From positions 32,001 through 96,000 of the IMG/VR virus record IMGVR_UViG_3300027608_000014: a DNA stretch of 64,000 bases, one strand, 5' to 3'. Shown one piece after another: positions 7,888-40,848 of the stretch (positions are counted from its first letter, which is position 1; each line of letters starts with the position of its first letter). Source of the stretch: a virus. Made by a program: the position numbers and the translations under genes. The notes beneath the pieces were generated by a model. It was not told where the DNA came from, did not search any database, and saw only the letters and a program-made list of their open reading frames with translations.

Positions 7888-8050
7888 TGCGGCTAAAGCG
7901 GCCGAAGATAAGAAAAATAGATCAGAGGCAAATGAAACAGATGTCCTTTTAGATCCCCTCAAACAAATGATCAATCTACTTGCGAAGATATTATATGCCA
8001 TCCTCAATGGCACTGATATGCCTCTGACGAAGGTAAACCCCCAGCAGTAA
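7706..8050 (+). repeat. Imperfect tandem duplication (175-nt period) of the tape measure 3' end
   Basis: 7706-7880 and 7881-8050 align closely (e.g. GTCCTTTTAGATCCCCTCAA...CTACTTGCGAAGATATTATATGCCATCCTCAATGGCAC in both). Confidence 0.95.
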
Positions 8051-8055
8051 AACTT

Positions 8056-8556
8056 ATGGCCAACATTTATAGATCAACTCCTGGAGCACTAGTTAAGTCC
8101 TCCGTGCGTCAGCCTTCGTTCCTAACGGTTAGTGGACTGGATTTTGGAGACAAAATGATCGCTACTAACTTCAAGCTGGATCGAGGTCAGGACATGCAGC
8201 ACCAGAAGACATTGTCGCAAGAAATCTACTCGTACGCCTTTGGAGAGGCCATGGGACGAATTCAGGTGGGAGGCATGATATTCTTTGGAGGCTGCAATGG
8301 ACCTTCATCGGCGGGAATCTCCCGTATAAATGGATATTACAGCGGTAACAATGCGTTTGCCAAAAAATCGTCCGTTACATGTACGATTGGAGGCCAGAGT
8401 GCATTCAAGTGCTACTTAGAGAATCTATCCATTCTCGTTGAGTCATCTGCCTATAACACGGGAAGCTTCAGCCTTGGATTCTCTGTGATTCCAGCAGGAG
8501 CCAAGGGTAGTGGAGGCGGGTTGTCAACTGGTGGGTTGTCAACTGGCTCCCTATAA
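8056..8556 (+). CDS. Tail tube-like / tube initiator protein
   Basis: 166 aa after the tape measure; QHQKTLSQEIYSYAFGEAMGRIQVGG resembles tube-initiator proteins. Ends in a 15-bp duplicated GGLST. Confidence 0.5.
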   Translation: MANIYRSTPGALVKSSVRQPSFLTVSGLDFGDKMIATNFKLDRGQDMQHQKTLSQEIYSYAFGEAMGRIQVGGMIFFGGCNGPSSAGISRINGYYSGNNAFAKKSSVTCTIGGQSAFKCYLENLSILVESSAYNTGSFSLGFSVIPAGAKGSGGGLSTGGLSTGSL

Positions 8557-14149: not shown

Positions 14150-15838
14150 ATGGCTGGTGATTTTACTGACGGAATCAACTTTTCCAATTATCTTTCTAGT
14201 TTCTGGTTTCAGATGTTTTCTGATCCAGAGATGGTGATCGGTATTGGTGACGCCTATGCCCGTCAGCTATCTCAACACTATCAGGACTTCGCAGAAACAG
14301 TTAACTCCGTATCAGTAAGGGACATCGATCCATTCCACACTGAGCTAGTTTATCCAATCTTCATTCGACAGTCTGAGTTCTCAGCAGGCATAAGGCCGCT
14401 TAAATTCGGAGAAAATGCCGTTTTCGGTCCACAGCCTGCAGGAAGAACGTTCAAAGAGGGCACTACTCTAGATTTTGGACGAAAGGCAGCACTGGCTCCA
14501 GTTTACTACGCCGATCTGCCGGATGACTTAGTTGATGCAGGAACGACTATTCTCAATCGACTGCACAACCCCAGCGTAATTCTGATTAATGGGTTAGACT
14601 ATGTCTTTCAGGATGGTGTCATTGTATTCAAGGAGGACATTTTTAATAACGATTTGATCGCCAAGAGGACGACGGCTACCAGCAATGGCTCAGCTGACTC
14701 AGAGATCGTGCTATGGGCAACGAACGTTCATATCGAGAAGCTCCAGCTGTATAGAAGTTTTGGCCACCTTTTCTTTGGAAAGTCAGTCAAAGGTCCAGCT
14801 CTCAAGGCGGCTCTGAAGTCAATCTTTGCTCTATATTCAGGCGGCCCATCTATCGCCAGGCTCGACAGTTTTGTGGCAGTTGCGTGCGGATTCCCTGTAA
14901 CCGCTGAAGCCTCAGAGACCGTAATGTCAATCGAGCGCCTAGGAACAGCACAGATCGTAATCACTGATAAGGCGGCATACAGCGTAACTCCCAGCTTGAC
15001 GCTCCGTGACTCTGTCATTGTCGGAGCTACACTGACCGCAGGAAGTCCATTGACCACGGCCACCGAAGTGATCGATCGGGTATCCAGCCCTCTGTGGTGG
15101 AACGGCATTGATGGAATCACAGTTGATAAGGGGCTTATGTTGGCAGGAGTGCCGCCCCTTGGATTCTTGAATCAAGAGTATCCGGTAACACTAGACGGAA
15201 CTATCTCTATTAATGGAGTTAGTCGACAGCTTTGCAGATTTTATTTGGCTGGAACTGAGTCTGGAATAGAAGCCTTCTGGGATAAAACCAAAGAGCTGGG
15301 CATTGCATCTGATGAGTTCCTTGCCGAGATCCTGTGGACAGGCGCCAATCTAGTTGATGGAAACGGTGACCCAGATTACGATCAAGACCTGTATGTCAAT
15401 CCCATGCAGATACTCAACGATCTGATCGGAGACAGCCTCATAATCGTCAAAATCAACGAAGACATTACTAGTGATGTTGCCTCTATGTTGCGACTTCTTC
15501 GTCAGACCATCCCGTCGTTCTGCACCATTATTGTCTTAATCAACATTAACATAGAGGACTCGTATTCCCTAGTCTCAGACTCCGAGACGGCCCCAGAAAT
15601 CGAACAACTGGAGTTTGTTGATGGCAGATCTTTGTTTATCAATGACACTGCCAGCTTTGACGCTACTACTCAAGGATTCTGGGAAAATCGAGACTCAGAG
15701 ACAGGAGAGTTACTCACTAAGACACCAGAGGCTATCTCCCTTGGAATCTCTCCCTCAATCCTCGTCGATACGGTTGACCTTGGGGGCGCTTCAGTTTATG
15801 CTGAAAGTGTTACAGCTCGTCTCGAACCTACCTGTTAA
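14150..15838 (+). CDS. Baseplate wedge/structural protein
   Basis: Follows baseplate J in a tightly packed operon. Confidence 0.5.
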   Translation: MAGDFTDGINFSNYLSSFWFQMFSDPEMVIGIGDAYARQLSQHYQDFAETVNSVSVRDIDPFHTELVYPIFIRQSEFSAGIRPLKFGENAVFGPQPAGRTFKEGTTLDFGRKAALAPVYYADLPDDLVDAGTTILNRLHNPSVILINGLDYVFQDGVIVFKEDIFNNDLIAKRTTATSNGSADSEIVLWATNVHIEKLQLYRSFGHLFFGKSVKGPALKAALKSIFALYSGGPSIARLDSFVAVACGFPVTAEASETVMSIERLGTAQIVITDKAAYSVTPSLTLRDSVIVGATLTAGSPLTTATEVIDRVSSPLWWNGIDGITVDKGLMLAGVPPLGFLNQEYPVTLDGTISINGVSRQLCRFYLAGTESGIEAFWDKTKELGIASDEFLAEILWTGANLVDGNGDPDYDQDLYVNPMQILNDLIGDSLIIVKINEDITSDVASMLRLLRQTIPSFCTIIVLININIEDSYSLVSDSETAPEIEQLEFVDGRSLFINDTASFDATTQGFWENRDSETGELLTKTPEAISLGISPSILVDTVDLGGASVYAESVTARLEPTC

Positions 15839-15846
15839 ATCCATTC

Positions 15847-16434
15847 ATGAACTTAGATTGCACTGTCCTCGCCGGTCATACAAACGACAAGACCGGAATA
15901 TTCTCTCCGGTATCAACCCAGCGTAATATGGTCATGTACCAGGGCGCCGACATCATTGCTTCACTTCTCAGTGGGGATCAAAGTGCCGCCCTATCTCACA
16001 TGTACTTTCATTACTCGAATGATGGTGATACCACTCCAGCCGCTCCGCCTCTAGACAGGACCATGGGCGGAAGTTGGTTTTATGACGAAGTGGATGGTGC
16101 TGATTACTATGACTGGCTTCGCGTTCCGATCATCACCGCTCCAAGACTATTTAGGTCTCCCTCCAATTCTTCTAACTATGCGGCTAATGGCATCTATTTA
16201 ACGGCCACAGCCGCAGCGTCAGAGTCAATGCACGGAGAGAGCCCGCAAGGCAATGAGTTTGGTTCCGGCGCGTCTCCCTCGCCAAGTATTGTGTTTGCTG
16301 CCGCACTAGTCTCTGCTGCGAATCCATCCTTTCCATCGCAGGACAGAATCTTTTCTCGAGTTAATCTTGTGACACCCTTGACCACTGTTGCTGGCTCCCA
16401 GCCAACCATCTTCTGGTCTGTAAGCATCTCATAA
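15847..16434 (+). CDS. Baseplate/tail-fibre attachment protein
   Basis: RNMVMYQGADIIA...IFSRV...IFW.V pattern seen in DUF3751/gp53-like fibre-base proteins. Context. Confidence 0.45.
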   Translation: MNLDCTVLAGHTNDKTGIFSPVSTQRNMVMYQGADIIASLLSGDQSAALSHMYFHYSNDGDTTPAAPPLDRTMGGSWFYDEVDGADYYDWLRVPIITAPRLFRSPSNSSNYAANGIYLTATAAASESMHGESPQGNEFGSGASPSPSIVFAAALVSAANPSFPSQDRIFSRVNLVTPLTTVAGSQPTIFWSVSIS

Positions 16435-18656
16435 TGGCAAGTCCTCAATACTGGAAAACAAGCGTCCGTCCCATTGTGGACGGCGAGAGTGTAAATGCTC
16501 AGGTTGCTAATCGAGCGATTCAGGATCAGACCTCAAGAGAGGAGTTTCTTTACGGTCAGATTCAGAACCTTAACCTAACCAGCGGTAGAGTAGTTAAGGC
16601 TGGAGTTGCAATTCACTCTAGCGCGGCACTTTATGATATTGTTTACTTTGACACTGTCTCTGAGTCGTGGGCCCCAGCACTAGCTGAGTACACTGAGGTG
16701 GACGGTGAGCCGGTCCCAACTGATCGCTCGTTCGCAACAGGGATGATACTAAGTCTCTCAGCTGGATTTGGTGATGTTCTGCTCTTTGGACAAATTCTGG
16801 TCTCAGGAACCCTGATGGACTATGCAATCGATTTTCTGGAACTCCTGGATACCGCTGAATTCTCTCTGACCCCAGGAGCATACTATCTGTCCCGTAAGAT
16901 TGCCGGTAAGATCTCCCGTGTCCCCGCCGCCCCGACTGTGCATATTGGAAACTTCAATAGCACCAACTTCTTCTTTAATCCTAATCATAAAAGCTTTCAA
17001 GAGAGTCACTTCCATTATGCCTTTGATCTAGATTCAATTCCATCGGCTAGTCAGAACTATGACGAGACAGGATGGTTTCAGTTTGTGGCTGGTGGGACAA
17101 AGTTCGTTGATTACTTCAACCGAAACACCAACACTAGCCCGCCACTGATCATTGCCACTATCAGATGGACTGGAGCGGTCGTACCAACTGACTGTAGGGT
17201 TGAAATTTATCGATCGTCGGCTGGAAGGTTCTCAGCTGTAGTTATCAGTGACGGCATTGACTATAACAATCCTCAGAGCGCTGGGGTCTACAATGACACC
17301 GTAATCACCGACCAGCTATGGCCGCAGTACGGAGAATATATCTCTATTGGTACTACCGGACTCGAAGTCGCCTTCTTGCGTAATGACGGAGTCTATGGCA
17401 GCGGAACAAGCCTCTCGGCTGATGCTGAGTCATTAATTCCAAATGCTACTGATAAGTTTAAATTCTTTCTGCCTAACGATCTACATGGCTGGACAAATGT
17501 AAACACTCTAGACATCAACTCCCCAGTAGGAGCAGTCTATCGGTACGTCATCGAGGGGCAGAAGTTACTCGATATGGCCTTTCCGCCACTACCACTCTCC
17601 AGTGCAATCATCGAGTCGAATGGAATTAGCCTGCAGCGGGGGGAGGACTTTATCATCAGCCTGGCCGGAATCTGGTGGATCCCAAGCGATGACTATGCGC
17701 CTTGGCCATCAGACTACAGAGCTGACGGTGTTGGTATGGTGGATAACAACGCTCGCTCTCTGAAGATCCACTTTTCAAGGGCCACGACTTCAAATGTCGC
17801 AGCGGGCGTTCAGAGCCTGAGGAGTAACACTCCTGCCTTGGTTATTGCCAAGTGCCCAACTGGAGAGCCCGCAGAAGATGGACCTCTAAGTATCGATCTA
17901 AATCTTAGCCTACAGGTTGATACCGATGTTACTGAATCTAAAGATCTTGCTCTTGTCGGCGTAGACGGGCTGACGTTCCTAACCGGACCAATTGTCACTG
18001 AGCTTGTGGCTGGCTCTGGAATCGCACTCGAGAGACTGTCTTCATCACTTATCCCAAACTCATCCAGGTTTACTGGTAAGGTCAGGGTCAGCAGAATGGA
18101 TGTCAATCTTGAGGGAGAAATCTCATCAATTGCCCTTCGTAACGCCAAGGAAGAAAAGGGTTCTTTCTTTCCATACGTCTCATTCCCACCACCAAGTAGA
18201 ACCGCAAGTGGCATTACAGCCAGCTTCAAGATACCAATCACAGGCGTTACCATGGGTGGCCTAACAGTCTCGACGCAAGTGCTCGGCTCAGTCAGTGCCA
18301 CTGCTGACAGAACGGCCATATTCAAGGCGGTGTATCATGCTGTCAGACCAGGATTCAATGTCGGCACCTTCGTCGAGGGAAACGCTTTCGCGGTCCAATA
18401 CTGGACAGTGCTCTTAGCCACTGGCTATTCGGCACTTAATGTTCTGAGTAATGAGGTGCAAGGTGATGAAATCACCGCGACAACCATTGCAGCTGACTAC
18501 CCATCTTCCTTGGTTGCAATAGACACAGGAGCTACCCTTAAGGATGGAGACATCATTGCTGTAACCATCACCAGAGTAACTAATGATGGAGGATCGGGTA
18601 CAGATAATTACGCTGGTGATATTGGGTTTGCCGGTCTTCGTTGGGTAATTGCATAA
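16434..18656 (+). CDS. Tail fibre-related structural protein
   Basis: N-terminal PIVDGESVNAQVANRAIQ..SR..FL is a typical fibre N-terminal anchor. Confidence 0.55.
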   Translation: MASPQYWKTSVRPIVDGESVNAQVANRAIQDQTSREEFLYGQIQNLNLTSGRVVKAGVAIHSSAALYDIVYFDTVSESWAPALAEYTEVDGEPVPTDRSFATGMILSLSAGFGDVLLFGQILVSGTLMDYAIDFLELLDTAEFSLTPGAYYLSRKIAGKISRVPAAPTVHIGNFNSTNFFFNPNHKSFQESHFHYAFDLDSIPSASQNYDETGWFQFVAGGTKFVDYFNRNTNTSPPLIIATIRWTGAVVPTDCRVEIYRSSAGRFSAVVISDGIDYNNPQSAGVYNDTVITDQLWPQYGEYISIGTTGLEVAFLRNDGVYGSGTSLSADAESLIPNATDKFKFFLPNDLHGWTNVNTLDINSPVGAVYRYVIEGQKLLDMAFPPLPLSSAIIESNGISLQRGEDFIISLAGIWWIPSDDYAPWPSDYRADGVGMVDNNARSLKIHFSRATTSNVAAGVQSLRSNTPALVIAKCPTGEPAEDGPLSIDLNLSLQVDTDVTESKDLALVGVDGLTFLTGPIVTELVAGSGIALERLSSSLIPNSSRFTGKVRVSRMDVNLEGEISSIALRNAKEEKGSFFPYVSFPPPSRTASGITASFKIPITGVTMGGLTVSTQVLGSVSATADRTAIFKAVYHAVRPGFNVGTFVEGNAFAVQYWTVLLATGYSALNVLSNEVQGDEITATTIAADYPSSLVAIDTGATLKDGDIIAVTITRVTNDGGSGTDNYAGDIGFAGLRWVIA

Positions 18657-30613: not shown

Positions 30614-31294
30614 ATGAAGAAACTCATCCTATCCCTTTTCACCCTAACTGCACTTTCCTTCTCTGCCCTCGGCGGTCAGAACGAGAAGTTCACGGGTACC
30701 ACCCAAATCCAAGCGGGCACTCTGACGCTCAAGCCAGGAACGACCCTCACTCTTTCCAATACAGCTTCAGCTCCGCAGCTCGATCGAGCGTTCTATCTTG
30801 GCGAACCAGCAACGTCGCTAACTATTGTTACTGCCACAGCGATTACCGCTGCTGGCACAACCTATACCGTCGCTAACCAGCCCGACGTTCCTCGTTTGCT
30901 TCAGACGGTAAGAGCTCTGACGAGTACTGCCGATACGGGTGTGATTTCAGTAACTATCGTTGGAACCGACACAACTGGCGCTGCTCTTACTGAAACAATT
31001 CTAGTGGCTACTGGTGCAACAACCACCCTTGGAACGAAAGCGTTTAAAACCGTAACGAGCGTTACTCAAGTGGGAACCAACACAGCTGTTGCTGGAGCCG
31101 ATACCGTAGCCGTTACCTGTCAGGGTGTTTATGGACTTCCAGTTATTCCAGTTGAAAACCAGACGTTTGCGATCACGACTTCCGGCAGTACTCTCGCCGC
31201 TTCTGCTGTCGTAACAAATGCCAGCGTTGCCCTTTGCACAGTTGCAGTGGCCTCCAATGGTGGTGCTAAGCTCTGGGTCCACATCGCCCGCTAA
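30614..31294 (+). CDS. Thr/Ala-rich protein with N-terminal signal peptide
   Basis: MKKLILSLFTLTALSFSALG leader; G.KAFKTVTSV motif; followed by a terminator. Confidence 0.65.
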   Translation: MKKLILSLFTLTALSFSALGGQNEKFTGTTQIQAGTLTLKPGTTLTLSNTASAPQLDRAFYLGEPATSLTIVTATAITAAGTTYTVANQPDVPRLLQTVRALTSTADTGVISVTIVGTDTTGAALTETILVATGATTTLGTKAFKTVTSVTQVGTNTAVAGADTVAVTCQGVYGLPVIPVENQTFAITTSGSTLAASAVVTNASVALCTVAVASNGGAKLWVHIAR

Positions 31295-31314
31295 GTAGTT
31301 TCCCCTCACAATCT

Positions 31315-31341
31315 ACCCGACCAGAAATGGTCGGGTTTTTT
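31315..31341 (+). terminator. Intrinsic terminator ending the structural module
   Basis: ACCCGACC-agaaat-GGTCGGGT then TTTTT. Confidence 0.85.
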
Positions 31342-31401
31342 GTTGTCGTGATGCAAAGAAGGTCCTTGCGTCGAATCGATTTCTTCGTATTCTTATGCCA
31401 C

Positions 31402-31866
31402 ATGAGAAAACCACTAACCGAAGAACAGAAAGCCAAAAATCGCATATATCGAATGGCCTACTATGAGAAAAATAAAGACCTTGAATTGGCCAGGGCAAAA
31501 GAGTACCAATCAAAAAATCGTGAGAAGCTCAATGATTACTACCGAGAGTATCATGCCAAGGATCGAGAGAAGAACAATGAGTATCATAGGCAATATCGAA
31601 AGGACAATCCTGATAAGATTGCCAGGATTGAGTTTGAGTCCAAAGCTAGAAATCCTCTGAAAGAATGGGCCAAGGATCAGTGCCAGAAGGCCGTTCGTCA
31701 GGGGCTCTTAAGTAGGCCAGATAAGTGCGATAGGTGTCCCACTGCATGCGTACCAGATGGACATCATGAAGATTACAGCAGGCCGTTGGATGTAGTGTGG
31801 CTGTGTCACACTTGTCACGCAGTTGCCGATCGATCTAGGAGGGCTAAGGAGAAAGCCACAAGGTAA
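31402..31866 (+). CDS. HNH-like endonuclease with basic helical N-terminus
   Basis: Likely ATG at 31402. RP..C..C...GHHEDYSRPLDVVWLC..CH motif. Confidence 0.75.
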   Translation: MRKPLTEEQKAKNRIYRMAYYEKNKDLELARAKEYQSKNREKLNDYYREYHAKDREKNNEYHRQYRKDNPDKIARIEFESKARNPLKEWAKDQCQKAVRQGLLSRPDKCDRCPTACVPDGHHEDYSRPLDVVWLCHTCHAVADRSRRAKEKATR

Positions 31867-31966
31867 AGATACAAGAGGTCGGAAATGATAGAATATGGGA
31901 CATAATACTTTGTATAGCATATATCTATCAGATACATGTTATACAAAAGGCCTTAGGGCCCAACAC

Positions 31967-32032
31967 ATGTCGCAAGACAAAAGTCTTCATCGAGCTGAAC
32001 GTCGAATCAGCGAGTACCTTCTTCGCGGCTAA
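31967..32032 (+). CDS. Possible 21-aa peptide MSQDKSLHRAERRISEYLLRG
   Basis: ATG after an AC-rich leader (CAACAC); too short to verify. Confidence 0.25.
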   Translation: MSQDKSLHRAERRISEYLLRG

Positions 32033-32132
32033 GCGATGATTTCTTTTCTCACCAACATACATCCGTAAGAAGCGGAAGTGTTGGCGTCGTTCCACTCACC
32101 TTTTTTTGTCGTTAGTGCGACGTTAAACATCC

Positions 32133-32216
32133 CGGTGCTTGGGCACTGTTAGCTGGGTTCAATTCCTAGCGAGGTCACTAAGCCCAAGGCGTTCAATCGA
32201 AAGATTGGGAATGATC
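32133..32216 (+). ncRNA. Pistol-like ribozyme 1 (variant with inserted T-loop hairpin)
   Basis: P1 CGGTG/CACTG. Loop CTTGGG pairs perfectly with CCCAAG (32183-88), preceded by CTAAG and followed by GCG. P3 TTCAATC/GATTGGG, junction AA, P2 GGTCA/TGATC. The AAA linker is replaced by a GCTGGG-TTCAATT-CCTAGC hairpin. Confidence 0.55.
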
Positions 32217-32249
32217 CAAACAAACACAGCCCCACAAGGGGAGGCGACG

Positions 32250-32495
32250 ATGGCCGACTCCATCGTTAGGTCAGAACGTGACCTATTCGAAGAAACCCTC
32301 ACTGCAGCCCTCAAGGGCCTGCGCCTCGGCAAGATGGCAAAGGTTCAGGTAATCGAGCTCCCCGAGGAGTTTGCCCTCGTAATTGACCGGAAGCACCTGC
32401 TCCGGTATCGGGGGGTGGGCCCAAAGGCCGTCGCGGAGTTTGTGGAAAACCTGAGCGAGAGATTGGATGGGTGCAAGGTGTTCTTCTCCACCTGA
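32250..32495 (+). CDS. Hypothetical protein (alternative in-frame start at 32211)
   Basis: ATG 32250 has a GGGGAGG Shine-Dalgarno. GC-rich codon usage. Confidence 0.55.
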   Translation: MADSIVRSERDLFEETLTAALKGLRLGKMAKVQVIELPEEFALVIDRKHLLRYRGVGPKAVAEFVENLSERLDGCKVFFST

Positions 32496-32520
32496 CACCA
32501 ACTGAAGGTTCGATCCCTTC

Positions 32521-32586
32521 CGTCGTTCGTGCGACGTTAAACAGCATACTAGGCACGAAGCGTCCACTCACTCGAGTGGGGATATG
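32521..32586 (+). ncRNA. Pistol self-cleaving ribozyme 2
   Basis: CGTCG-TTCGTG-CGACG (P1), TTAAACAG, P2 CATA, CTAGG, pseudoknot CACGAA, GCG, P3 TCCACTC/GAGTGGG, junction GA, P2' TATG. Matches the pistol layout element for element except GA in place of GU at the cut site. Confidence 0.8.
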
Positions 32587-33630
32587 ATCAAAATTATCAC
32601 AGAGACGCAGGCCCTCTTAATGGTCTGCACTCCCGAAGACCGGATTAAAGGTCTTGTCGTAGTTCACAGCGGCGTGTTCCACGCCGACGATGTGTTCTTC
32701 GTCGCCTTCCTCACGCTGGTCAGTCCCAGCATTCAGATCGTCCGGACTCGCAAGAGCGAGATCATTGAGGCGGCGGAGATCGTGGGCGATGTTGGTGGCA
32801 TCTGCGCCATCAATCAAAACCGCTACGACCACCACCAGAAGGGTGGGGCCGGTGCGCGCCTGAACGGAGTGCCCTTTGCGAGCTTCGGCTTGATCTGGTC
32901 GCACACAGGCTGGACGCTGGACCTGATCGGCACCGTGCTCAGGGGCGGCGGTCAGTACAGCGCCATCGCTCGGATAGTCGACGAGTCGCTGGTCCAGGCG
33001 ATCGACGCGTCGGACTGCGGCTTCACGTCGGCCGCCAGCGACCCTTTCGCGGATGCCACTCCGCGCTACTCGCTGAGTATGGCCATCAGCGCGTTCAATC
33101 CGGACTGGTCGGAGGACGACCAGGACTTCGACGCCGCCTTCGCCAGGGCCGTCGAATTCGCACAGATGATTCTCCGTCGAGAGATCATCAGCGCGGCGGG
33201 GCAGGTCGAAGCGACGTTGGTGGTCAAGCAGGCAATCACCGAGCAGACGGACGAGCCGGAGATCTTGATCCTCAATCGGTTCTGCCCTTGGCAGAATACG
33301 GTCCTGCGATGCGCCGACGTGGTGAAGTTCGTTGTCTTCCCTTCGGAGACTGGCGACTGGCGCGTGCAGGCAGTGCCCGTCTACTCTGGCTCGTACGAGA
33401 CCAGGATGTCCCTTCCGGCAACCTGGGCAGGCCTCCGCACGGCGAAACTCGCAGCGGCGGTTCGCGCCAGTGGCGGATCGATCGGGGACGACGAGGCGGC
33501 GTTCTGCCACGACAAGCTCTTCATCGGTGGGGCGACCACCTTTGAAGGAGCCATGCAGATGGCTCGCGCCGCCCTGCCAAAGGTTGCTGAGGTCAGCATC
33601 GATCTCACGGATCTCCGTGAGCGGGCCTAG
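32584..33630 (+). CDS. MYG1 family (DHH-like) 3'-5' RNA exonuclease
   Basis: HSGVFHADD, IVRTR, DVGG, YDHHQ, ASFGLIW, IDASD, FNP, R..LP..WAGL, FCH..FIG motifs. Confidence 0.9.
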   Translation: MIKIITETQALLMVCTPEDRIKGLVVVHSGVFHADDVFFVAFLTLVSPSIQIVRTRKSEIIEAAEIVGDVGGICAINQNRYDHHQKGGAGARLNGVPFASFGLIWSHTGWTLDLIGTVLRGGGQYSAIARIVDESLVQAIDASDCGFTSAASDPFADATPRYSLSMAISAFNPDWSEDDQDFDAAFARAVEFAQMILRREIISAAGQVEATLVVKQAITEQTDEPEILILNRFCPWQNTVLRCADVVKFVVFPSETGDWRVQAVPVYSGSYETRMSLPATWAGLRTAKLAAAVRASGGSIGDDEAAFCHDKLFIGGATTFEGAMQMARAALPKVAEVSIDLTDLRERA

Positions 33631-33687
33631 CAAGCCCGTGCAGTTATCTCCCGCCCCGAAAGGGGCGGGACACTTTCCGGGTTATCC

Positions 33688-34311
33688 ATGAACCCAGTAA
33701 TAAAATGGAAGTTGCCGAAAGGCATAGAAAGGCACACCATGACGTGTACCTCGTATATCCGGGTTAAGGGCCCCGTGAAAGCCCTCAAAGTCTGCAACTG
33801 GTGCGGCCCAGATGCAGAAGACCCGCAGCCGCAGCAGTTGTTCCTCGTGGCGGGGGAACAGGATTCGTTTGGGACAGAATGGCACGAGGTGTGCCAGGCC
33901 TGCATCGACGCTGGCAACGTCGCCTCCGAGACGGCGCTCGAGGTCCGAATCGCCAAGATGGTGGAGAAGCTCGGCAGTGAGCAGTCCGATACGGACTTCT
34001 ACGTCGCGGCGCTGGGCAGCCGCGACACGGTGGACGAGTGCGCCATCGTTCGGGGAGCGACGAACGCAGCCCATATGTTTGTCCGCTGGGAGGACATCGC
34101 CGCCAACAAGGGCGACTACCTCTACTCAGAGGCGCTCCGCATCGCCACTGACGACGACCGGAGCACCGTCGTCAGGTTCCGGAAGGACCGGGACGAGGAG
34201 GAGCGGCGGTACTGGGCCAAGCAGGATGAGCTGGAGGAGCTGGGGGAGCTGGAGGATCGAGATGCTCAGGATGAGCAGGATGAGCAGGATGAGGAAAGGG
34301 AGGAAGCATGA
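33688..34311 (+). CDS. Hypothetical protein (CxxC motifs, acidic tail)
   Basis: GC-rich ORF with QDE repeats. Confidence 0.6.
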   Translation: MNPVIKWKLPKGIERHTMTCTSYIRVKGPVKALKVCNWCGPDAEDPQPQQLFLVAGEQDSFGTEWHEVCQACIDAGNVASETALEVRIAKMVEKLGSEQSDTDFYVAALGSRDTVDECAIVRGATNAAHMFVRWEDIAANKGDYLYSEALRIATDDDRSTVVRFRKDRDEEERRYWAKQDELEELGELEDRDAQDEQDEQDEEREEA

Positions 34312-34559
34312 GCGCCTCCTACGCAACAGAGGACCTCCGCAAGCTCCTCGTCGCGATCCTCCGCAAGGAGCCGCGACAAGCCAAGATCGCCCTTATGGCG
34401 GTGACCCTCACAGGGGACACCCTCACCATAAAGGGCCAACTGGAAGACTGGATCCACTCCAGCCTCCAGGCCCTCAGCCAGAAGCGAGCTCCACGCCCGC
34501 CCTCGACTGAGCTCAAGAGGATCGCGAAAGCGCTCCTCGACCACCACTTCCCTGGTTAA
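34308..34559 (+). CDS. Hypothetical protein
   Basis: ATGA overlap and GGAGG Shine-Dalgarno. Confidence 0.55.
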   Translation: MSASYATEDLRKLLVAILRKEPRQAKIALMAVTLTGDTLTIKGQLEDWIHSSLQALSQKRAPRPPSTELKRIAKALLDHHFPG

Positions 34560-34574
34560 TAATGGGAAGGTTCG

Positions 34575-34656
34575 GGTCTGCCTTCGGGTGGTCGCCGTTG
34601 TTAGTGATTTATCCTTACGGATACTTCCTACAACGCGACCACACCGAAGGCAGACC
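34575..34656 (+). other. Long imperfect hairpin A (family of three)
   Basis: GGTCTGCCTTCGG...GTGGTCGC.GTTGT...ACAACGCGACCAC.CCGAAGGCAGACC. Confidence 0.8.
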
Positions 34657-34777
34657 AGGAGACATGGCGTGTTGGTTTCATATACCCTTTTTTAGGTATC
34701 AAAGACTTTCGGCACCTTGAGTGTCACGCAGTAGGCCCTCCCTTGGCCTAACCATATGGGATTAGAAAAACGTTACC

Positions 34778-35149
34778 ATGAAAATCATGAACGTCAGTGC
34801 AGTGTTGGTTGCGGTTGTAGGTCTCATGCTTGGTGCATGCGATAAAGACGGTGCGATTAGTACCTCGATTAAGAAAGAGGAGGTCCGACACAAGGAGGCA
34901 ACCTCCGCTGAGAAAGCGCGGCACCTCAAAGAGGTCAGGGACATTAAAAACGCTGAGGCGTGGCAGAGCCTGAAGCAGAAGATGGAAGCTGCCAAGGCCA
35001 CCGTTGCCGCTGATGGCGAGAGCCTGAAACAGAAGATGGAAGCGGCCAAGGCCACCGCCGCCGCTGAGGGCGAGAGCCTGAAACAGAAGATGGAAGCGGC
35101 CAAGGCCAAGGCCTCGCGCTGGAGCTTCACCCCCAGTGCCAACCCGTAA
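34778..35149 (+). CDS. Lipoprotein with 20-aa repeats
   Basis: Signal peptide ending in lipobox LGA-C; three copies of (E/Q)SLKQKMEAAKA (60-bp repeat). Confidence 0.7.
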   Translation: MKIMNVSAVLVAVVGLMLGACDKDGAISTSIKKEEVRHKEATSAEKARHLKEVRDIKNAEAWQSLKQKMEAAKATVAADGESLKQKMEAAKATAAAEGESLKQKMEAAKAKASRWSFTPSANP

Positions 35150-35151
35150 AT

Positions 35152-35313
35152 ATGGACGCCTCACCAAATAACAAGAAGGTCAACCGGATGACGGCCGAAG
35201 CTCTTCGGATCGCTCTCTCCGTCGCCAGTGAAACTGGCAACATCGACGAGAGAGGTCGCCCCATGTCGGCTAACGCTCGCCATCTAATGGCAGCGCTGGC
35301 GGCGAAGAGCTAA
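35152..35313 (+). CDS. Small hypothetical protein (53 aa, not in ORF track)
   Basis: MDASPNNKKVNRMTAEALRIALSVASETGNIDERGRPMSANARHLMAALAAKS, starting 2 nt after the upstream stop. Confidence 0.5.
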   Translation: MDASPNNKKVNRMTAEALRIALSVASETGNIDERGRPMSANARHLMAALAAKS

Positions 35314-35362
35314 GAGGCTCTCCAACAAATATCCAGTGGGCCGGTGCGCCCACTGCACTTTC

Positions 35363-35424
35363 CGTGTAGAGCGCAGCCCTTTTAAGGCTGAGGTTGCTGG
35401 TTCAAATCCAGTCCTACGCGACTA
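35363..35424 (+). tRNA. D-armless tRNA-Lys(UUU)-like RNA
   Basis: Acceptor CGTGTAG/CTACGCG, 4-nt linker AGCG with no D arm, anticodon arm CAGCC-CTTTTAA-GGCTG, T arm GCTGG-TTCAAAT-CCAGT. Ends ACTA rather than ACCA. Confidence 0.65.
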
Positions 35425-35690
35425 TTTATGCAACAGCAAATGTTGTTGCTTCTGGGACTTGGCCCAGAAGTACCGTCCCTGAAACGCAAAGTGCAACCCT
35501 GCGAGCGGATGCGCTCTCTGTTTCAGGAGATGAGGAATGCGGCTGCGAAAGCCTGAGGATCTACTGGGCATGGGAGCCCAGCCCTTTCGGGTGGTTGCGT
35601 TGTTAGTAACTTGTCGCAAGACATTTAACTACACAACGCAATCACTTGGAGGTAGACCGGCAATGAGGCGTGTATACTTACAGATTCCTT
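35425..35690 (+). ncRNA. Unassigned multi-hairpin structured RNA (includes hairpin B, 35586-35650)
   Basis: Several stems (CTTCTGGG/CCCAGAAG, CCTGAAAC/GTTTCAGG, CTGGGC/GCCCAG, an 18-bp stem with a GCAA apical loop) between tRNA genes; no convincing ORF. Confidence 0.5.
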
Positions 35691-35765
35691 TTCTTTACAG
35701 GTCAGCAACCTTTCCCCCAAAACCATCAGAAATCTAGAATCTCAAATTCTTCTGATTACTAATTT

Positions 35766-35842
35766 GCAGCCATAGCTCAGTCGGATAGAGCAGAAAACTT
35801 CTAATTTTCAGGTCGTTGGTTCGATCCCAACTGGCTGCACCA
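35766..35842 (+). tRNA. tRNA-Arg(UCU)
   Basis: Canonical cloverleaf GCAGCCA...TGGCTGC A CCA with anticodon loop CTTCTAA. Confidence 0.95.
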
Positions 35843-36020
35843 TTCTCTCAGTTCAGAGTTACGCCCTGAATGAAGCCCTCTCCGCAAGGGGCCATAAATC
35901 GTGAGATATCGCCTAAGCCCGATACTCCACGTCACTTTCGTCACTTAACGGTGACCCAAACAAAACAACAACCAAAACAACCAGTGCAACTAAAACAAAA
36001 ACAAGAAGTAAAAAGTAAGC

Positions 36021-36181
36021 AATGTAGCCCCTCAAAGAAGAGGCTTGTGGACGACTTCCAAACCGACAAGAATTCTATGAGCAAGATGGAGCTGGTCATT
36101 TCAATGACCGCCTTCTGCATGGTAACTGGACCCGTCTATTTTGTGATCTGGTACCTCAAGCATTTTTCATTCATTGAATAA
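36021..36181 (+). CDS. Small membrane protein (start uncertain, within ORF 35870-36181)
   Basis: Hydrophobic C-terminus MELVISMTAFCMVTGPVYFVIWYLK. The 5' part of the called ORF looks like AC-rich leader or structured RNA. Confidence 0.3.
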
Positions 36182-36225
36182 AGCAAATAACAGAACCAAA
36201 CAAACAACATAGGAGACTGCATAAC

Positions 36226-36567
36226 ATGTCAGAAACCAATGAAGGGTTAAAGGCGCTATCACTTTTGACCATGACGCTAAAGCCAGAAGCGACAGCGCCT
36301 AAGCCAGAAGCGACAGCGCCTAAGCCCAAGGCAAAACCCAAGGCAAAACCCAAGGCAAAACCCAAGGCAAAACCCAAGGCAAAACCCAAGGCAAAACCCA
36401 AGGCAAAACTGCCAAAGCGTAAGCTGAAGTTTAGGCCCAGGACGCTTACGGGGCGGTTGATTCGCCCAGTAAGGCGAGCCCTTTACTGGGCCCGCGAGTG
36501 CTGTAAAGCACTCGTAGCAGGATTACGCGGCAAAAAGTATCCGAAGAATCGGATGGAACTGCCGTAG
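36226..36567 (+). CDS. Basic histone-like protein with PKAK repeats
   Basis: Two KPEATAP repeats and seven PKAK repeats (12-bp CCCAAGGCAAAA, 36325-36408). AGGAG upstream. Confidence 0.6.
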   Translation: MSETNEGLKALSLLTMTLKPEATAPKPEATAPKPKAKPKAKPKAKPKAKPKAKPKAKPKAKLPKRKLKFRPRTLTGRLIRPVRRALYWARECCKALVAGLRGKKYPKNRMELP

Positions 36568-36596
36568 GCTTAGTGTCAGGAGGAGCTTTTTCGTTT

Positions 36597-36631
36597 ATGG
36601 CCACGGCTAGCTGGTAGCTAGCCGTGGTCAT
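36597..36631. other. 16-bp near-perfect inverted repeat
   Basis: ATGGCCACGGCTAGCT-ggt-AGCTAGCCGTGGTCAT with no U tract. Confidence 0.7.
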
Positions 36632-36648
36632 TGTCTTGCAATAATCAG

Positions 36649-36987
36649 ATGAATAAATACCCATGGGATTGTCTAGAATGCGTATATCTAGGACACCATA
36701 ACGGCGCAGACCTCTATGCCTGCCCCGGAAACAATAATAATCCAACAGTTACAGCGGTCTTCAGTACAGAGGTCGGTGACTACGTGCATAGCCCAGTCAA
36801 GAGGATCGACTCCTCAGGCATTCTCACTGTAGCCCTATCCTACGCTCGCCAGCAGGGGTACTTGGATAGCAGTGATAGGTCCACTGACCGCCTCGCCCCA
36901 TTGAACGATTTTGAAATTTTAGAAGCTAAGTATCCAGTGCCAGTTATCGGTGACGTTCCGGATTTGAATCCGGTAATCACCAACTAA
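36649..36987 (+). CDS. Hypothetical phage protein
   Basis: Likely ATG at 36649. Y..DC..C.YLG.....DLY.C motif of small phage proteins. Confidence 0.55.
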   Translation: MNKYPWDCLECVYLGHHNGADLYACPGNNNNPTVTAVFSTEVGDYVHSPVKRIDSSGILTVALSYARQQGYLDSSDRSTDRLAPLNDFEILEAKYPVPVIGDVPDLNPVITN

Positions 36988-37023
36988 GACAACCAAGACA
37001 ACCAAGACAACCAACCTAATCAA

Positions 37024-37683
37024 ATGAAAAAACAAATCGAAGAGAAACAACAAGAACAGGATCGTGCAATGATGGATAAAACTATCGCAACCTTCGAAAG
37101 ACAGATCGCCCACAAGAACGATCAGGGAAACTTCCTGATCCGTGATGGGGAAGTCACACTGGGGCGACTAGTCCTCGCCGCCGGTGATGCAATGCTCAAG
37201 GTTCAGCAAGAGCTGATTCGTATGTGGCAAACTCAAACTCGAGCTCAGGAGGACACCCTCCATAAATTTTTCGCTCCTCAGGCTTCGTCGCCCATTCGCC
37301 AATCAACTCGATTGGCTGATTTCATCGACGAGGATGCTGCTCGGTTCAGAGTTACAGCCAAGAACTATCGCGCTGCGGGCCAAACTGATCTGGCCAAGAA
37401 GGTTACCAATATGTGTATCGCATTTGATGCAATGGCTGCCGGTCTGCGGAAAAACTTCGACGAGTCTGGCAGCCTGTTTGCCAAGTACAATTTTGCTGTT
37501 CCGGCGACGAAGGAGAATCTTCAGAATGACCACAATCTCAGTCCTATCAGCAATGTTGATGATGATAAAGGAGAACCAGATCAGGACTCCCTGGACGCCT
37601 GGAAGGCGAGCCTCCATCAGGACGACGTGGTGCACAGTATCCGGGGACGGTTTGCTGAGCACGTAGCGTCTCAGGGCATCTAA
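37024..37683 (+). CDS. Hypothetical protein
   Basis: 219-aa ORF after an AC-rich leader with a 9-bp AAGACAACC x3 repeat. Confidence 0.6.
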   Translation: MKKQIEEKQQEQDRAMMDKTIATFERQIAHKNDQGNFLIRDGEVTLGRLVLAAGDAMLKVQQELIRMWQTQTRAQEDTLHKFFAPQASSPIRQSTRLADFIDEDAARFRVTAKNYRAAGQTDLAKKVTNMCIAFDAMAAGLRKNFDESGSLFAKYNFAVPATKENLQNDHNLSPISNVDDDKGEPDQDSLDAWKASLHQDDVVHSIRGRFAEHVASQGI

Positions 37684-37697
37684 TCTCATGCAGTCAA

Positions 37698-38010
37698 AGG
37701 CGTCAGCCTCCTGCCTGTAGGGTTTCGCCCATACGAAGGGAGGACAGAGGAATGGAGCCATCTTCACCCTCGAAGGCCCGGACGTAGGGAAGTGTCAAAG
37801 GATGGAATTTCCTAATGGCGTTACTTTCCGACTTAAAGTAAAGTCGGTGGTGGAGGGTGCAATAGCCGAAACGCAAGTGCGCCCCTGTAAATGCGAGATC
37901 GGCTCAACTTCACTGTTGGGTCGGTCTCGCGATTTAGGCTCACATCTTATGATCCAATGTAGGCTTCCAGAGCTGAGATTGGGAAGGGTAGTGGGTCCAA
38001 ATCGCGAGAC
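37698..38010 (+). ncRNA. Unassigned structured RNA region
   Basis: Multi-stem unit closed by GGCGTCA/TGGCGTT, plus long rods GCGAGATCGGCTCAAC/GTTGGGTCGGTCTCGC and GTCTCGCGATTT/AAATCGCGAGAC. Confidence 0.45.
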
Positions 38011-38137
38011 AAAAACTCGCTGCGCCTAAAAGGCGCTTGTTCTGCAAACTCAAATTGAAACTAAGAACGTGGCGCCCAATGGGTCTCTGCGACATCAAAG
38101 TAATATTCAAAGTTTTACAGAGCAAATTCAACAGCAG

Positions 38138-38358
38138 AGTCGAATAGCATAAAAGGATTCATTTAGCCGATCCCAACTCTAACATGATATGCGGGTTCAA
38201 TTCCCGCCCTCGGTGCTCAGCTCATCTGATCGTTTACTTAGTAACGATTCCTTTAAAATGGAAACAGGTGGGCTGAGCACCGAGGTAGCACAATGGTAGT
38301 GCGCGTGCCATGAAACTGAGGTTGGTTAATTTAGGGTCCGACAAAAGCCAGTTCGACT
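38138..38358 (+). ncRNA. Large YrlA-like (Y RNA) permuted tRNA mimic
   Basis: Terminal stem AGTCGAA/TTCGACT. Internal order is T arm (GCGGG-TTCAATT-CCCGC), closed 21-bp acceptor helix, TA, D arm (GCAC-AATGGTA-GTGC), which is the YrlA topology. Confidence 0.7.
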
Positions 38359-38378
38359 ATTCTATGAAATGAATAACG

Positions 38379-38415
38379 GGTGGGGTCAGCGGCAATGCTG
38401 ACCCCACCTAATTTT
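38379..38415 (+). terminator. Terminator-like hairpin after the YrlA-like RNA
   Basis: GGTGGGGTCAGC-ggcaat-GCTGACCCCACC then TAATTTT. Confidence 0.7.
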
Positions 38416-38462
38416 GTTAGTACTTTTATCAAGAAACTTAATGCAAGTTAAACGATAAAATC

Positions 38463-39218
38463 ATGAGTAAGAAAGCACACGAGCTGATCGCCGTTCAGGG
38501 TGACCTCACCGCAAAAACCAAAGCAATCCTTCTGGAGACCTTTAAGGCCTTCTCAGGAAAACCAGAGCTCTTCCTCGGCTCCTACAAAGCAACTAAGGCC
38601 TACAGTGCCGATCGATCGCAGGGAATCGACGCTGAGGAATTCAAGGATCTCACTACAACTGTGCCTGAGCGAATCGGCTATACTCTGGCTGTGGTCAAGG
38701 ACGAGATCAACGCACGCGCATCCTTGGATGCCACCAATTGCCTAGCCAAGGCAGATCTTATTATCGATGGAGTGGTACTCGCCACGGGCATTCCAGCGGT
38801 ATCACTCTTGCTCCTCGAGCAGCAGTGCGGTGCCTGGCTTGAGCTCTTCACATCAGCCCCAACCCTAGCGAACGGCGTCGCCTGGGAATTGGATCCCGAC
38901 AAGGGACCGGACATCTACGTCACTAAGCATCCTATTGTCAGAACGAAGACCGAAAAGGTTTCTTCTGCAGTAGTCTTGGCACCTGCCACTCAACAGCATC
39001 CGGCTCAGGTCAAGGAAGTCGTCAATGATGTTCCTGTGGCCAGCATCACGGAGACTCAGTGGAGCGGCATGGTCAGTTCTGCCTACAAACACGGCGGAGC
39101 GGAAAAGGTACAGAAGCTGAAGACAGCGGCTAAAGAAGCACGTCAGCGAGCCAACAATCAGGAAGTCGTCATCTCCACTCTCGGAGATGTAGTCTTTAAC
39201 TACCTGATGAAGAGCTAA
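38463..39218 (+). CDS. Conserved hypothetical protein (DUF7873-like, recalled similarity)
   Basis: K.HELIAV..D, F..KPELF.G, D.TN..AKAD..IDG, P...LL.LE, TKTEK...VL.PAT..HPAQV, WSG, A.KEARQRAN motifs. Confidence 0.6.
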   Translation: MSKKAHELIAVQGDLTAKTKAILLETFKAFSGKPELFLGSYKATKAYSADRSQGIDAEEFKDLTTTVPERIGYTLAVVKDEINARASLDATNCLAKADLIIDGVVLATGIPAVSLLLLEQQCGAWLELFTSAPTLANGVAWELDPDKGPDIYVTKHPIVRTKTEKVSSAVVLAPATQQHPAQVKEVVNDVPVASITETQWSGMVSSAYKHGGAEKVQKLKTAAKEARQRANNQEVVISTLGDVVFNYLMKS

Positions 39219-39400
39219 GAATTTTTAATTTTGTCTTGGGAGGAACAATGCGCCATCACGTTGAAAGCGCTTATTAAGCCCGGTGAAAGCCCGACCAGAT
39301 CTTCCGTTCCTCTCTTCCTCTTGCAGGAGCTATACTGACTATGGCTGGCAAATAACTAACCAACAACCTGGCGCCTCAGCAGACTCTGGGGCAAATTTTT

Positions 39401-39478
39401 CACGTAACAGCTCAACCTGGTAGAGCACCTGTATGCAGAACAGGACGTTGCTGGTTCAAATCCAGTCCTACGTGACCA
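39401..39478 (+). tRNA. Atypical tRNA with GCA anticodon (Cys-like)
   Basis: D arm GCTC/GAGC, anticodon arm CCTGT-ATGCAGA-ACAGG, T arm and encoded CCA. Non-canonical: C8, A32, A73 discriminator, A7-C mismatch, extra base between T and acceptor stems. Confidence 0.65.
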
Positions 39479-39534
39479 CTTTCAGTAAACCAGCAAAACC
39501 AACAAAAAAAAACAAAAACTAAAACAACAAAACA

Positions 39535-40056
39535 ATGACAACTACTGAGACCAATAAATACATCCGCCTGCTCCGGCGCCTGAAAACGCTGAACCATAGC
39601 TGGATCGAGGCGGCTGAGATACTGAAGAAAATTCGGGACGAGAGGCTGTACTTGGGAGAATACAGCTCCTTCAATCAGTTCTGCGCCTGCGAGCTGGGGA
39701 GAACCGACCTGAACATCCGCTATAAGATAAGGGCTGGGGAGATTGCTAAGGCAATCCACAGTGAGTTTGGTATCGCAATCTGTAACGACCATGCAGCTGC
39801 GTTAATTCCGCTAAGATCGGAGGAGCGTATCGCTGCCTTCAAGGAAGCGATGGCCTCGTCTGGGACAGGGATGCCGACGAAACAACAAATAAAAGAGGTA
39901 GTACAGCGAAGGGATGGCTCACCCCTGTTCTTGACTATCCATGCGTTGGTAAGAAAAGTGAAATGTCCAAAGGGGGTGTTTCTATCCCCAAAACGGTCCA
40001 AGCAGTTTGAGGAGGACCTGTTGTGGTTCATCCAGCAGTGGCTGGCAAATAACTAA
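39535..40056 (+). CDS. Putative DNA-binding protein
   Basis: L..IRDERLY..Y.SF..FC..ELG helical motif common in phage DNA-binding proteins. Confidence 0.55.
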   Translation: MTTTETNKYIRLLRRLKTLNHSWIEAAEILKKIRDERLYLGEYSSFNQFCACELGRTDLNIRYKIRAGEIAKAIHSEFGIAICNDHAAALIPLRSEERIAAFKEAMASSGTGMPTKQQIKEVVQRRDGSPLFLTIHALVRKVKCPKGVFLSPKRSKQFEEDLLWFIQQWLANN

Positions 40057-40117
40057 CCAACAAACCGGCACGTCAGCGGGCGTTGACCTTCGGGCGACTC
40101 TGGGGTACACTTTAATT

Positions 40118-40536
40118 GGGCCATAAAGGATTCGACTAATAGGTCAGATCTACAGCCACATGCAGAGGGACGACTTAGTTACCTCTTTAAACTCCTGAGA
40201 CAAAACTCAAACGCTAACGCGAATGACTCCGGCAACGGAAATGTGATCCAGGGCTACTTCGGTAGCTCTTCGGTCCGCACTCCGATGCTCGCTGCGGCCT
40301 AGTCCGCATCCGTCCTCTCTTCGACACCTGCTAAGGGAGAAGGACGACACCAGCAGGACGATGGTGGTGGATCCACTTTGGTACTGATCATACAGCAATG
40401 CTGCAGATCTGCGACTCGACCCACCTGGCAGCACATTTCCAGGGGACCTGTTAAGAGCGAATAATGAGATAAGCATGTAAACGCGGTAGAGTAAGACAGA
40501 TTAGGACCGGGCTCTCAGATGCCCGATGGTCCACCA
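40118..40536 (+). ncRNA. ssrA: tmRNA
   Basis: GGGCCAT/ATGGTCC acceptor with G3-U70, GGATTCGAC 5' motif and ACCA end. Tag ORF 40213-40302 reads ANANDSGNGNVIQGYFGSSSVRTPMLAAA. Confidence 0.9.
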
Positions 40537-40807
40537 TTTATACACTTGTCCGGTTAAAGTCCGGGCTACTCCGCCGCCCGCAAGGGCGACGGACACTTTC
40601 GCCTACTGGCATTCGTGTAAAACAGTAGGTTGCAACACAAGGCGACAGAAAAACTGATGTTTACATCAGCGGAAGCACAAGAAGAAATGAGACAATAGAT
40701 ACTCACTCCTGAAAGTGGCAAAGCTACGCTCTCGAGCCCTTTGCTAGCTCACGAGTTAAGATCGACCCGTGAGAGGTCCCTTAACTCATCTGACCACCTG
40801 TGTGGCT

Positions 40808-40848
40808 GTGCCATTACCCCCTAGCTAAGGGTGATGGCACTTTCTTTT
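40808..40848 (+). terminator. Intrinsic terminator ending the RNA cluster
   Basis: GTGCCATTACCC/GGGTGATGGCAC then TTTCTTTT. Confidence 0.8.

Follow-up and report, generated by a model that had tools for sequence, protein, structure and literature searches.

A D-armless tRNA-Lys(UUU)-like element in a freshwater jumbo phage, probably a lineage-specific relic of a phage tRNA gene

In mitochondria, D-armless tRNAs such as the mammalian tRNA-Ser(AGY) and those of nematodes join a 7-bp acceptor stem through a short linker to the anticodon arm, which is followed by a T arm; they are conserved, depend on co-evolved mitochondrial factors and have T and acceptor stems that adjoin directly. Structures of the tRNA type also act as processing elements, as in mitochondrial tRNA punctuation and in the mascRNA at the 3' end of MALAT1, where about 60 nt with an intact acceptor-T minihelix and an unconstrained anticodon region lie within a longer transcript. 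For attachment (att) sites, tRNA genes reduced to the stretch from anticodon or T arm to 3' end are typical. The tRNA pseudogenes of phage clusters are rejected by standard detectors, are lineage-specific and lie beside intact tRNA genes; most carry scattered mismatches or end truncations. A phage tRNA-Lys of known function is that of T5, which escapes PARIS AriB as a full-length working tRNA made uncleavable by changes in its anticodon stem, and which replaces the host tRNA rather than distracting the nuclease (PMC11464382).

The 62-nt element described here resembles each of these systems in part. It shares the arms and the 7-bp acceptor stem of the mitochondrial D-armless tRNAs, but its linker is only 4 nt long, an extra base sits at its T/acceptor junction and it belongs to a phage; the conservation of the mitochondrial molecules is not seen for an element confined to one species. 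Size, minihelix, a free anticodon region and a position inside a longer transcript bring it close to mascRNA and tRNA punctuation, from which it differs in that its cleavage is only predicted and that its relatives lack it. With the T5 tRNA-Lys it has in common that it is phage-encoded and bears the Lys(UUU) anticodon of a tRNA that is a nuclease target; having lost the D arm, it is not the full-length molecule on which the T5 strategy relies. Like phage-cluster pseudogenes it escapes standard detection, is lineage-specific and stands beside an intact tRNA gene and a decaying partner, but it shows one clean D-arm deletion with its other helices perfect. A full-text literature search on armless tRNAs in phages returned no report of such a gene.

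The element lies in a stretch of 64,000 nt (hereafter the window), bases 32001-96000 of a 148.9-kb IMG/VR record that CheckV rates as ~75% complete. From this completeness, the source is a jumbo phage of ~200 kb, and it recurs in freshwater metagenomes.

Anatomy and tRNA ancestry

An earlier note on this DNA had described a D-armless tRNA-Lys(UUU) whose 7-bp acceptor, anticodon arm and T arm are intact and which has CTA at the CCA site. The sequence and the RNAfold minimum free energy structure bear this description out and add to it an unpaired C where the T stem meets the acceptor stem (Table 1). The minimum free energy fold is itself the D-armless one (-22.4 kcal/mol, z = -2.6), and 2 of 200 shuffled sequences were as stable. 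None of the four helices or the two 7-nt loops has a defect: the anticodon loop, CTTTTAA, has U33 and a purine at position 37, and the T-loop, TTCAAAT, is of the TTCRANY type. The 5' strand of the D stem and the D loop are absent, with only AGCG left between acceptor and anticodon stems, and the loss of the D stem-loop with G18G19 sets the element apart from the four-arm cloverleaf of a canonical tRNA. Compared with working bacterial tRNAs, it thus lacks the elbow G18G19, carries an unpaired C and opens with a C1-G72 pair. The unpaired C lies between positions 65 and 66, where it interrupts the coaxial stack of acceptor and T stems. The element encodes CTA, whereas the other tRNA genes of the same phage mostly encode CCA.

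Table 1. Coordinates of the tRNA-like element, its parts and its neighbours in the window
Feature	Position	Strand	Details
8-bp GC-rich hairpin (CAGTGGGC...GCCCACTG), end of upstream 53-aa gene	35335..35355	+	97.5% conserved in sister lineage
CACTTTC motif directly 5' of element	35356..35362	+	tail of recurring hairpin+CACTTTC motif
Acceptor stem, 5' strand CGTGTAG	35363..35369	+	7/7 pairs (one G-U) with 35414-35420
Linker AGCG	35370..35373	+	remnant of D-stem 3' strand plus position 26
Anticodon arm CAGCC-CTTTTAA-GGCTG	35374..35390	+	anticodon TTT at 35381-35383
Variable region AGGTT and T arm GCTGG-TTCAAAT-CCAGT	35391..35412	+	AGGTT 35391-35395; T arm 35396-35412
Extra unpaired C at T stem/acceptor stem junction	35413	+	ARAGORN drawing, RNAfold
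Acceptor stem, 3' strand CTACGCG, with A73 and CTA	35414..35424	+	CTACGCG 35414-35420; A73 35421; CTA 35422-35424 (CCA site)
Canonical tRNA-Arg(UCU)	35766..35842	+	ARAGORN; Rfam 70.4 bits; invariant in 10 assemblies
Aberrant tRNA-like gene with Cys(GCA) anticodon	39401..39478	+	D arm, A73, encoded CCA; Rfam 37.2 bits

Standard ARAGORN leaves the element uncalled, the canonical tRNA-Arg(UCU) being its sole call in the window. The mitochondrial mode of the same program draws a D-loop-type tRNA-Lys(ttt) at 35363-35422, in a setting of low specificity that makes 52 calls in the 149-kb genome and that, taken alone, amounts to chance level. With the Rfam tRNA model (RF00005) the element reaches 29.6 bits, the gathering score being 29, at a window-wide E of 0.04; the match is local, covers model positions 10-63 only and contains a forced D arm with an A-A mismatch. 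This alternative fold of Infernal, with a D arm GCAC...GAGC and no 5' acceptor strand, was rejected: it leaves the 3' acceptor strand unpaired, and CGTGTAG pairs with that strand at 7/7 positions. The Rfam score and the similarity to the Cys(GCA)-like gene, both beyond what chance would produce, show that the element is derived from a tRNA.

The Cys(GCA)-like gene, which ARAGORN accepts only with lowered thresholds, holds a segment (39444-39481) to which 35390-35427 of the element is 89% identical over 38 nt, the two copies lying about 4 kb (4,054 nt) apart. The 3' acceptor strand and the unusual unpaired C occur in both genes, and the two T arms are identical; the anticodon arms are unrelated. 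Acceptor pair 2-71 is G-C in the element and A-T in the paralogue. The C/T difference in the 3' strand is thus matched by a G/A difference in the 5' strand, which makes CGTGTAG the true homologue of the paralogue's CACGTAA rather than a chance complement. Likewise, GTAG-AGC-G of the element aligns with GGTAG-AGC-A of the paralogue, that is, with the 3' strand of the D stem and position 26.

The paralogue is visibly decaying on the same scaffold. Two strains (L026 and L027) carry nine changes within 31 nt (39418-39448) that destroy its anticodon stem, while T arm and acceptor stem stay constant between strains although the anticodon stem varies. In a sister lineage the gene is cut down to its last 26 nt, beginning in the middle of the T-loop. 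The two strains are 98-99% identical overall, and the altered stretch, which spans the D and anticodon arms, resembles a recombination patch and not point drift.

Variation within the species and among related phages

The identical 62-nt truncated form was present in 12/12 independent assemblies examined, from at least 10 metagenomes dated 2017-2021, so that the truncated allele is fixed in one phage species or population. Among them are two assemblies of DNA runs from other studies (2021 and 2017), whose contigs span the element without any difference, and nine further independent spanning contigs from JGI lake metagenomes, found by a metagenome scan and by a look-up of the 53-aa neighbour protein. 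The earlier note had proposed comparing the deletion in related phages and had set a full-length tRNA in this slot as the observation that would speak against its reading; the deletion is conserved throughout the species, and a full-length tRNA was found neither in any of the 12 assemblies nor in the sister lineage, which lacks the element.

Variation of the element itself amounts to three haplotypes and two SNPs, neither of which breaks a helix. The G/A change at 35373 falls on the equivalent of position 26 and keeps a purine, and the T/C change at 35407 falls on T-loop position 60 and keeps a pyrimidine; both positions vary freely in working tRNAs, and none of the 34 stem nucleotides varies. 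Since the probability that both SNPs would miss the stems is ~0.2, this is weak evidence for function, and with stem variation nil there is no covariation signal to draw on. Across 10 assemblies the segregating sites number 2/62 in the element, 0/77 in the tRNA-Arg, 0/211 in the upstream block, 3/341 at 35425-35765 and 5/158 at 35843-36000 (~1-3% in the adjacent non-coding DNA). The element is therefore no more constrained than its least constrained neighbours, on counts too small to settle the matter.

The sister lineage was reached through graded homologues of a MYG1 exonuclease gene that lies 1.7 kb upstream of the element. Its contigs (L046, 172 kb; L052; L053), with MYG1 60-70% identical, are syntenic with the window from a glycosyltransferase gene to a ribonucleotide reductase (RNR) gene. 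The flanks of the slot are 97.5% (window 35164-35362) and 95% (35423-35681) identical, and the slot itself is occupied by an unrelated, hairpin-rich sequence of 133 nt that begins right after CACTTTC and extends up to TA-TTTATG. Four hairpins make up the fold of this sequence, in which Rfam has no tRNA match at E<1; the matches of MAFFT between it and the element (9/13 and ~19/33) were judged an alignment artefact. The swapped module is bounded on the left by CACTTTC and on the right by 35422/35423; the element is therefore a discrete module, specific to its lineage, and the tRNA-like fold ends exactly where the module does. Its absence between near-identical flanks in a sister lineage with other slot content indicates that it is dispensable. 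Both flanking blocks, at 95-97.5% identity, stand out between the lineages from the neighbouring genes (only 80-88%) and from MYG1 (70% at the amino acid level), the cause being recent exchange or, alternatively, strong constraint on the small gene and on the structured RNA that follows it.

Other tRNA modules of the region differ between the lineages as well. In the slot of the canonical tRNA-Arg(UCU), L046 carries at 13426-13502 a non-cloverleaf Arg(UCU) gene (36.6 bits) in which 4 nt stand where a D arm would be and the anticodon arm is followed by 18 inserted nt that include GG; the 5-nt variable region of our element has no space for a D-loop relocated in this manner. A stretch of 1.4 kb (window 38060-39457) is missing from the sister lineage, with the junction inside the T-loop of the Cys-like gene. 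The stump of the Cys-like gene, the swapped Arg gene and the swapped slot together indicate that tRNA modules of this island are freely gained, broken and exchanged. Within the missing 1.4 kb lie a Y-RNA-like mimic, a terminator, a DUF7873 gene and, of the Cys-like tRNA, the first 57 nt, and distant DUF7873 homologues likewise adjoin a tRNA gene.

Beyond the sister lineage, protein-anchored searches of IMG/VR (DUF7873, MYG1, RNR) returned distant relatives at 40-49% amino acid identity, or none. No tRNA-Lys was present in the regions examined of the more distant relatives, namely of L049 and of the IMG/VR records with 40-49% identical DUF7873 or RNR. Exact patterns of the T arm/acceptor 23-mer, the anticodon-arm 21-mer and a loose-end 30-mer had no match in IMG/VR, and no homologue of the element emerged from the IMG/VR and metagenome pattern scans. 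Loose ends at 35149, seen in three runs, were considered as a variant lineage and turned out to be a paralogous repeat at genome position 14633. In L049 (MYG1 56% identical), a CCA-adding-type nucleotidyltransferase and an RtcB RNA ligase surround MYG1 (6327-8072 and 15316-16506), which suggests that in the wider group the island is an RNA-repair neighbourhood; in the 149 kb of the present record, which is ~75% complete, neither enzyme was found. Two IMG/VR records with a 49% identical RNR (L039 and L042) have, according to ARAGORN, a tRNA-Cys(GCA) with a 51-nt intron, scored by Rfam at 47 bits over 128 nt, and an aberrant Cys-like gene nearby.

Relic, functional RNA or attachment site

The most economical account, which we think somewhat probable, is that the element derives from a phage tRNA-Lys(UUU) gene and is a relic confined to one lineage. 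Such a gene would have entered the slot in that lineage, taking up the space from the hairpin-CACTTTC to the conserved block downstream as a discrete module, and an internal deletion of ~15-18 nt would have removed tRNA positions 8 to 21/22, comprising U8, N9, the 5' strand of the D stem and the D loop. The simplest route would be slippage between the GTAG at the acceptor end and the GTAG of the GGTAGAGC D-arm motif, an event that would fuse the acceptor stem straight to AGC-G26. A deletion between two GTAG copies had already been proposed in the earlier note; the junction, in which GTAG is followed by AGC-G as 3' D-stem strand and position 26, agrees with it, while a demonstration would take the ancestral gene. 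We estimate that a GTAG-GTAG deletion is ~16 times likelier than a 5' truncation that chanced on an upstream CGT. The rest of the cloverleaf would have stayed intact through the short time elapsed at the scale of the population (0.5-1% divergence) and not through use; the element would be transcribed passively, by read-through from the upstream gene, and carried along in an accessory RNA island whose tRNA modules are routinely acquired, damaged and exchanged. Of the alternatives that had been raised, a decoy or minimal tRNA on one side and a recent pseudogene on the other, the evidence thus leans towards the pseudogene, though not one that is recent at the population level, with the allele in 12/12 assemblies. 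Some observations pull the other way: the helices are perfect, the restriction of SNPs to freely varying positions argues weakly against a relic, the edges of the module are the exact ends of the tRNA-like fold, and 60 useless nucleotides in a phage might be expected to be lost, yet they are fixed in 12 assemblies. A relic would be an ordinary by-product of tRNA-gene turnover, of value as a dated snapshot of a clean microhomology-type deletion that has become fixed in a natural phage population, within an island that swaps modules.

Readings in which the element is used, be it as a decoy or minimal tRNA or as a processing handle, together form a possibility of some weight that falls short of probable. 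Maturation into a D-armless RNA, serving as a sponge for anticodon nucleases that target tRNA-Lys(UUU) (PrrC or PARIS AriB type) or as a minimal tRNA charged by LysRS, seems unlikely to us. RNase P would have to cut at 35362/35363, the 3' end would have to be trimmed after A73 and the host CCA-adding enzyme would have to add CCA, with the acceptor-T minihelix sufficing for both enzymes; a sponge would act through the canonical CUUUUAA loop, and charging would proceed through the anticodon and A73. Such a molecule would account for the intact stems and loops, the structure-neutral nature of both SNPs and the fixation of the truncated allele, it would suit an island rich in RNAs linked to translation rescue (tmRNA, Y-RNA-like mimic, pistol ribozymes), and tRNA-Lys is a known nuclease target for which phage tRNA-Lys is a known counter-measure (PMC11464382; PMC10264068). 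The counter-defence tRNAs described so far are, however, full-length and functional and not decoys (PMC11464382), and the extra C breaks the acceptor-T stack that is read by RNase P, the CCA-adding enzyme and EF-Tu. The sister lineage does without the element, the IMG/VR and metagenome pattern scans yielded no homologue, and the element is under no constraint in excess of its flanks. Its anticodon stem, moreover, has no counterpart in bacterial tRNA-Lys: in a scan of 185,579 species representatives, bacterial and archaeal, the arm GCAGCC-CTTTTAA-GGCTG has 21 matches, all of them terminator-type hairpins, and no tRNA-Lys has it, from which it follows that the arm is neither a recent copy from a host nor a mimic of a known host tRNA-Lys. 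The decoy put forward in the earlier note, while unrefuted, therefore finds no support in an element restricted to one species, free of excess constraint and unlike any of the bacterial tRNA-Lys scanned. If it did function, it would be a natural tRNA-like RNA that works in the bacterial cytoplasm without a D arm and a novel type of counter to anticodon nucleases, of interest to the tRNA and phage-defence fields; the present data do not justify a functional reading.

The RNA data, assembled contigs of two metatranscriptomes, bear on this maturation and on a use of the element as a tRNA-like processing handle. In one metatranscriptome a 134-nt insert covers 35237-35370 with zero mismatches and then runs into Illumina adapter, so that RNA of this lineage reads through the hairpin-CACTTTC, across the predicted RNase P site and into the first 8 nt of the element. 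The only RNA contig that touches the element is thus unprocessed at that site, which counts against the matured RNA, and its entry into the element as read-through suits a handle. Positions 35371-35446 lie outside the RNA contig coverage, as does the canonical tRNA-Arg, and the coverage thus has no bearing on accumulation of the element. A handle, which we consider rather improbable, would offer the acceptor-T minihelix as an entry site for RNase P or RNase Z and would separate, in the read-through transcript, the upstream gene from the conserved structured block at 35425-35690, leaving the D and anticodon arms free to drift or be lost. What has stayed identical in the paralogues is confined to the T arm and the 3' acceptor strand, pair 2-71 being G-C in the element but A-T in the Cys-like gene; between the anticodon arms there is no relationship, the element has lost its D arm, and the anticodon stem of the paralogue varies by strain when T arm and acceptor do not, a distribution that a handle would explain, and a pistol ribozyme is similarly placed just before the MYG1 gene. 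On the other hand, the sister lineage manages without a handle at both sites, the 2-71 difference may go back to two ancestral tRNAs that were both intact, recent gene conversion may have made the T arms identical, and no RNA ends at the predicted cut sites in the contigs of the two metatranscriptomes. It is very improbable that the element is a fragment of an attachment site, that is, a copy of the 3' portion of a host tRNA-Lys gene that served site-specific integration or was left behind by it. It has the partial form typical of such sites, its T arm and 3' end are directly repeated 4,054 nt away and the stump in the sister lineage begins in the T-loop; nevertheless, no tyrosine integrase (PF00589) occurs in the 149 kb of the ~75% complete record, the element has a matching 5' acceptor strand of its own and no bacterial tRNA-Lys has its anticodon arm, which largely refutes this origin. 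The DNA between the repeats is, in addition, largely present in the sister lineage, which is without the left repeat.

The surrounding RNA island

The earlier note had placed the element in a cluster, right after a CACTTTC spacer in use elsewhere in it. The motif does directly precede the element and recurs in the island; a tRNA cluster is too much to say of one canonical tRNA (Arg-UCU) and two aberrant tRNA-like genes. All 7 plus-strand copies of CACTTTC in the 149-kb genome fall at window 30651-40838, most of them after a stable hairpin, while the overall count of the motif in the genome is not enriched. Stem-loops with CACTTTC were located at 33651-33677, 35335-35362, 39468-39483, 40574-40600 and 40820-40844, and copies of the motif are often followed by an A/C-rich leader and an ATG. 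The combination may serve in termination, in processing or as a promoter-proximal signal.

A phage tmRNA is encoded at 40118-40536 (Rfam 66 bits), with an RNA contig depth of 91 over 40125-40501; its counterpart in the sister lineage reaches 92 bits and has a tag peptide that ARAGORN reads. Rfam places the pistol ribozyme directly before the MYG1 gene, and the Y-RNA-like tRNA mimic lies at 38138-38358. The non-coding block at 37363-38351, which takes in this mimic, is represented by a contig of ~985 nt in both metatranscriptomes, at the top depth of the region (138 and 31), and because each of these contigs has 9 differences from the window, the block is expressed by a variant strain. Outside the window, at genome positions 142050-143574 (L033:10051-11575), a second tRNA cluster contains a good tRNA-Pro(UGG) and a tRNA-Thr(UGU) with a long variable arm, next to two borderline genes, one Pro-like with acceptor strand CGTGTAC and an aberrant T-loop and the other a Thr-like gene of 29 bits in which the seventh acceptor pair is mismatched.
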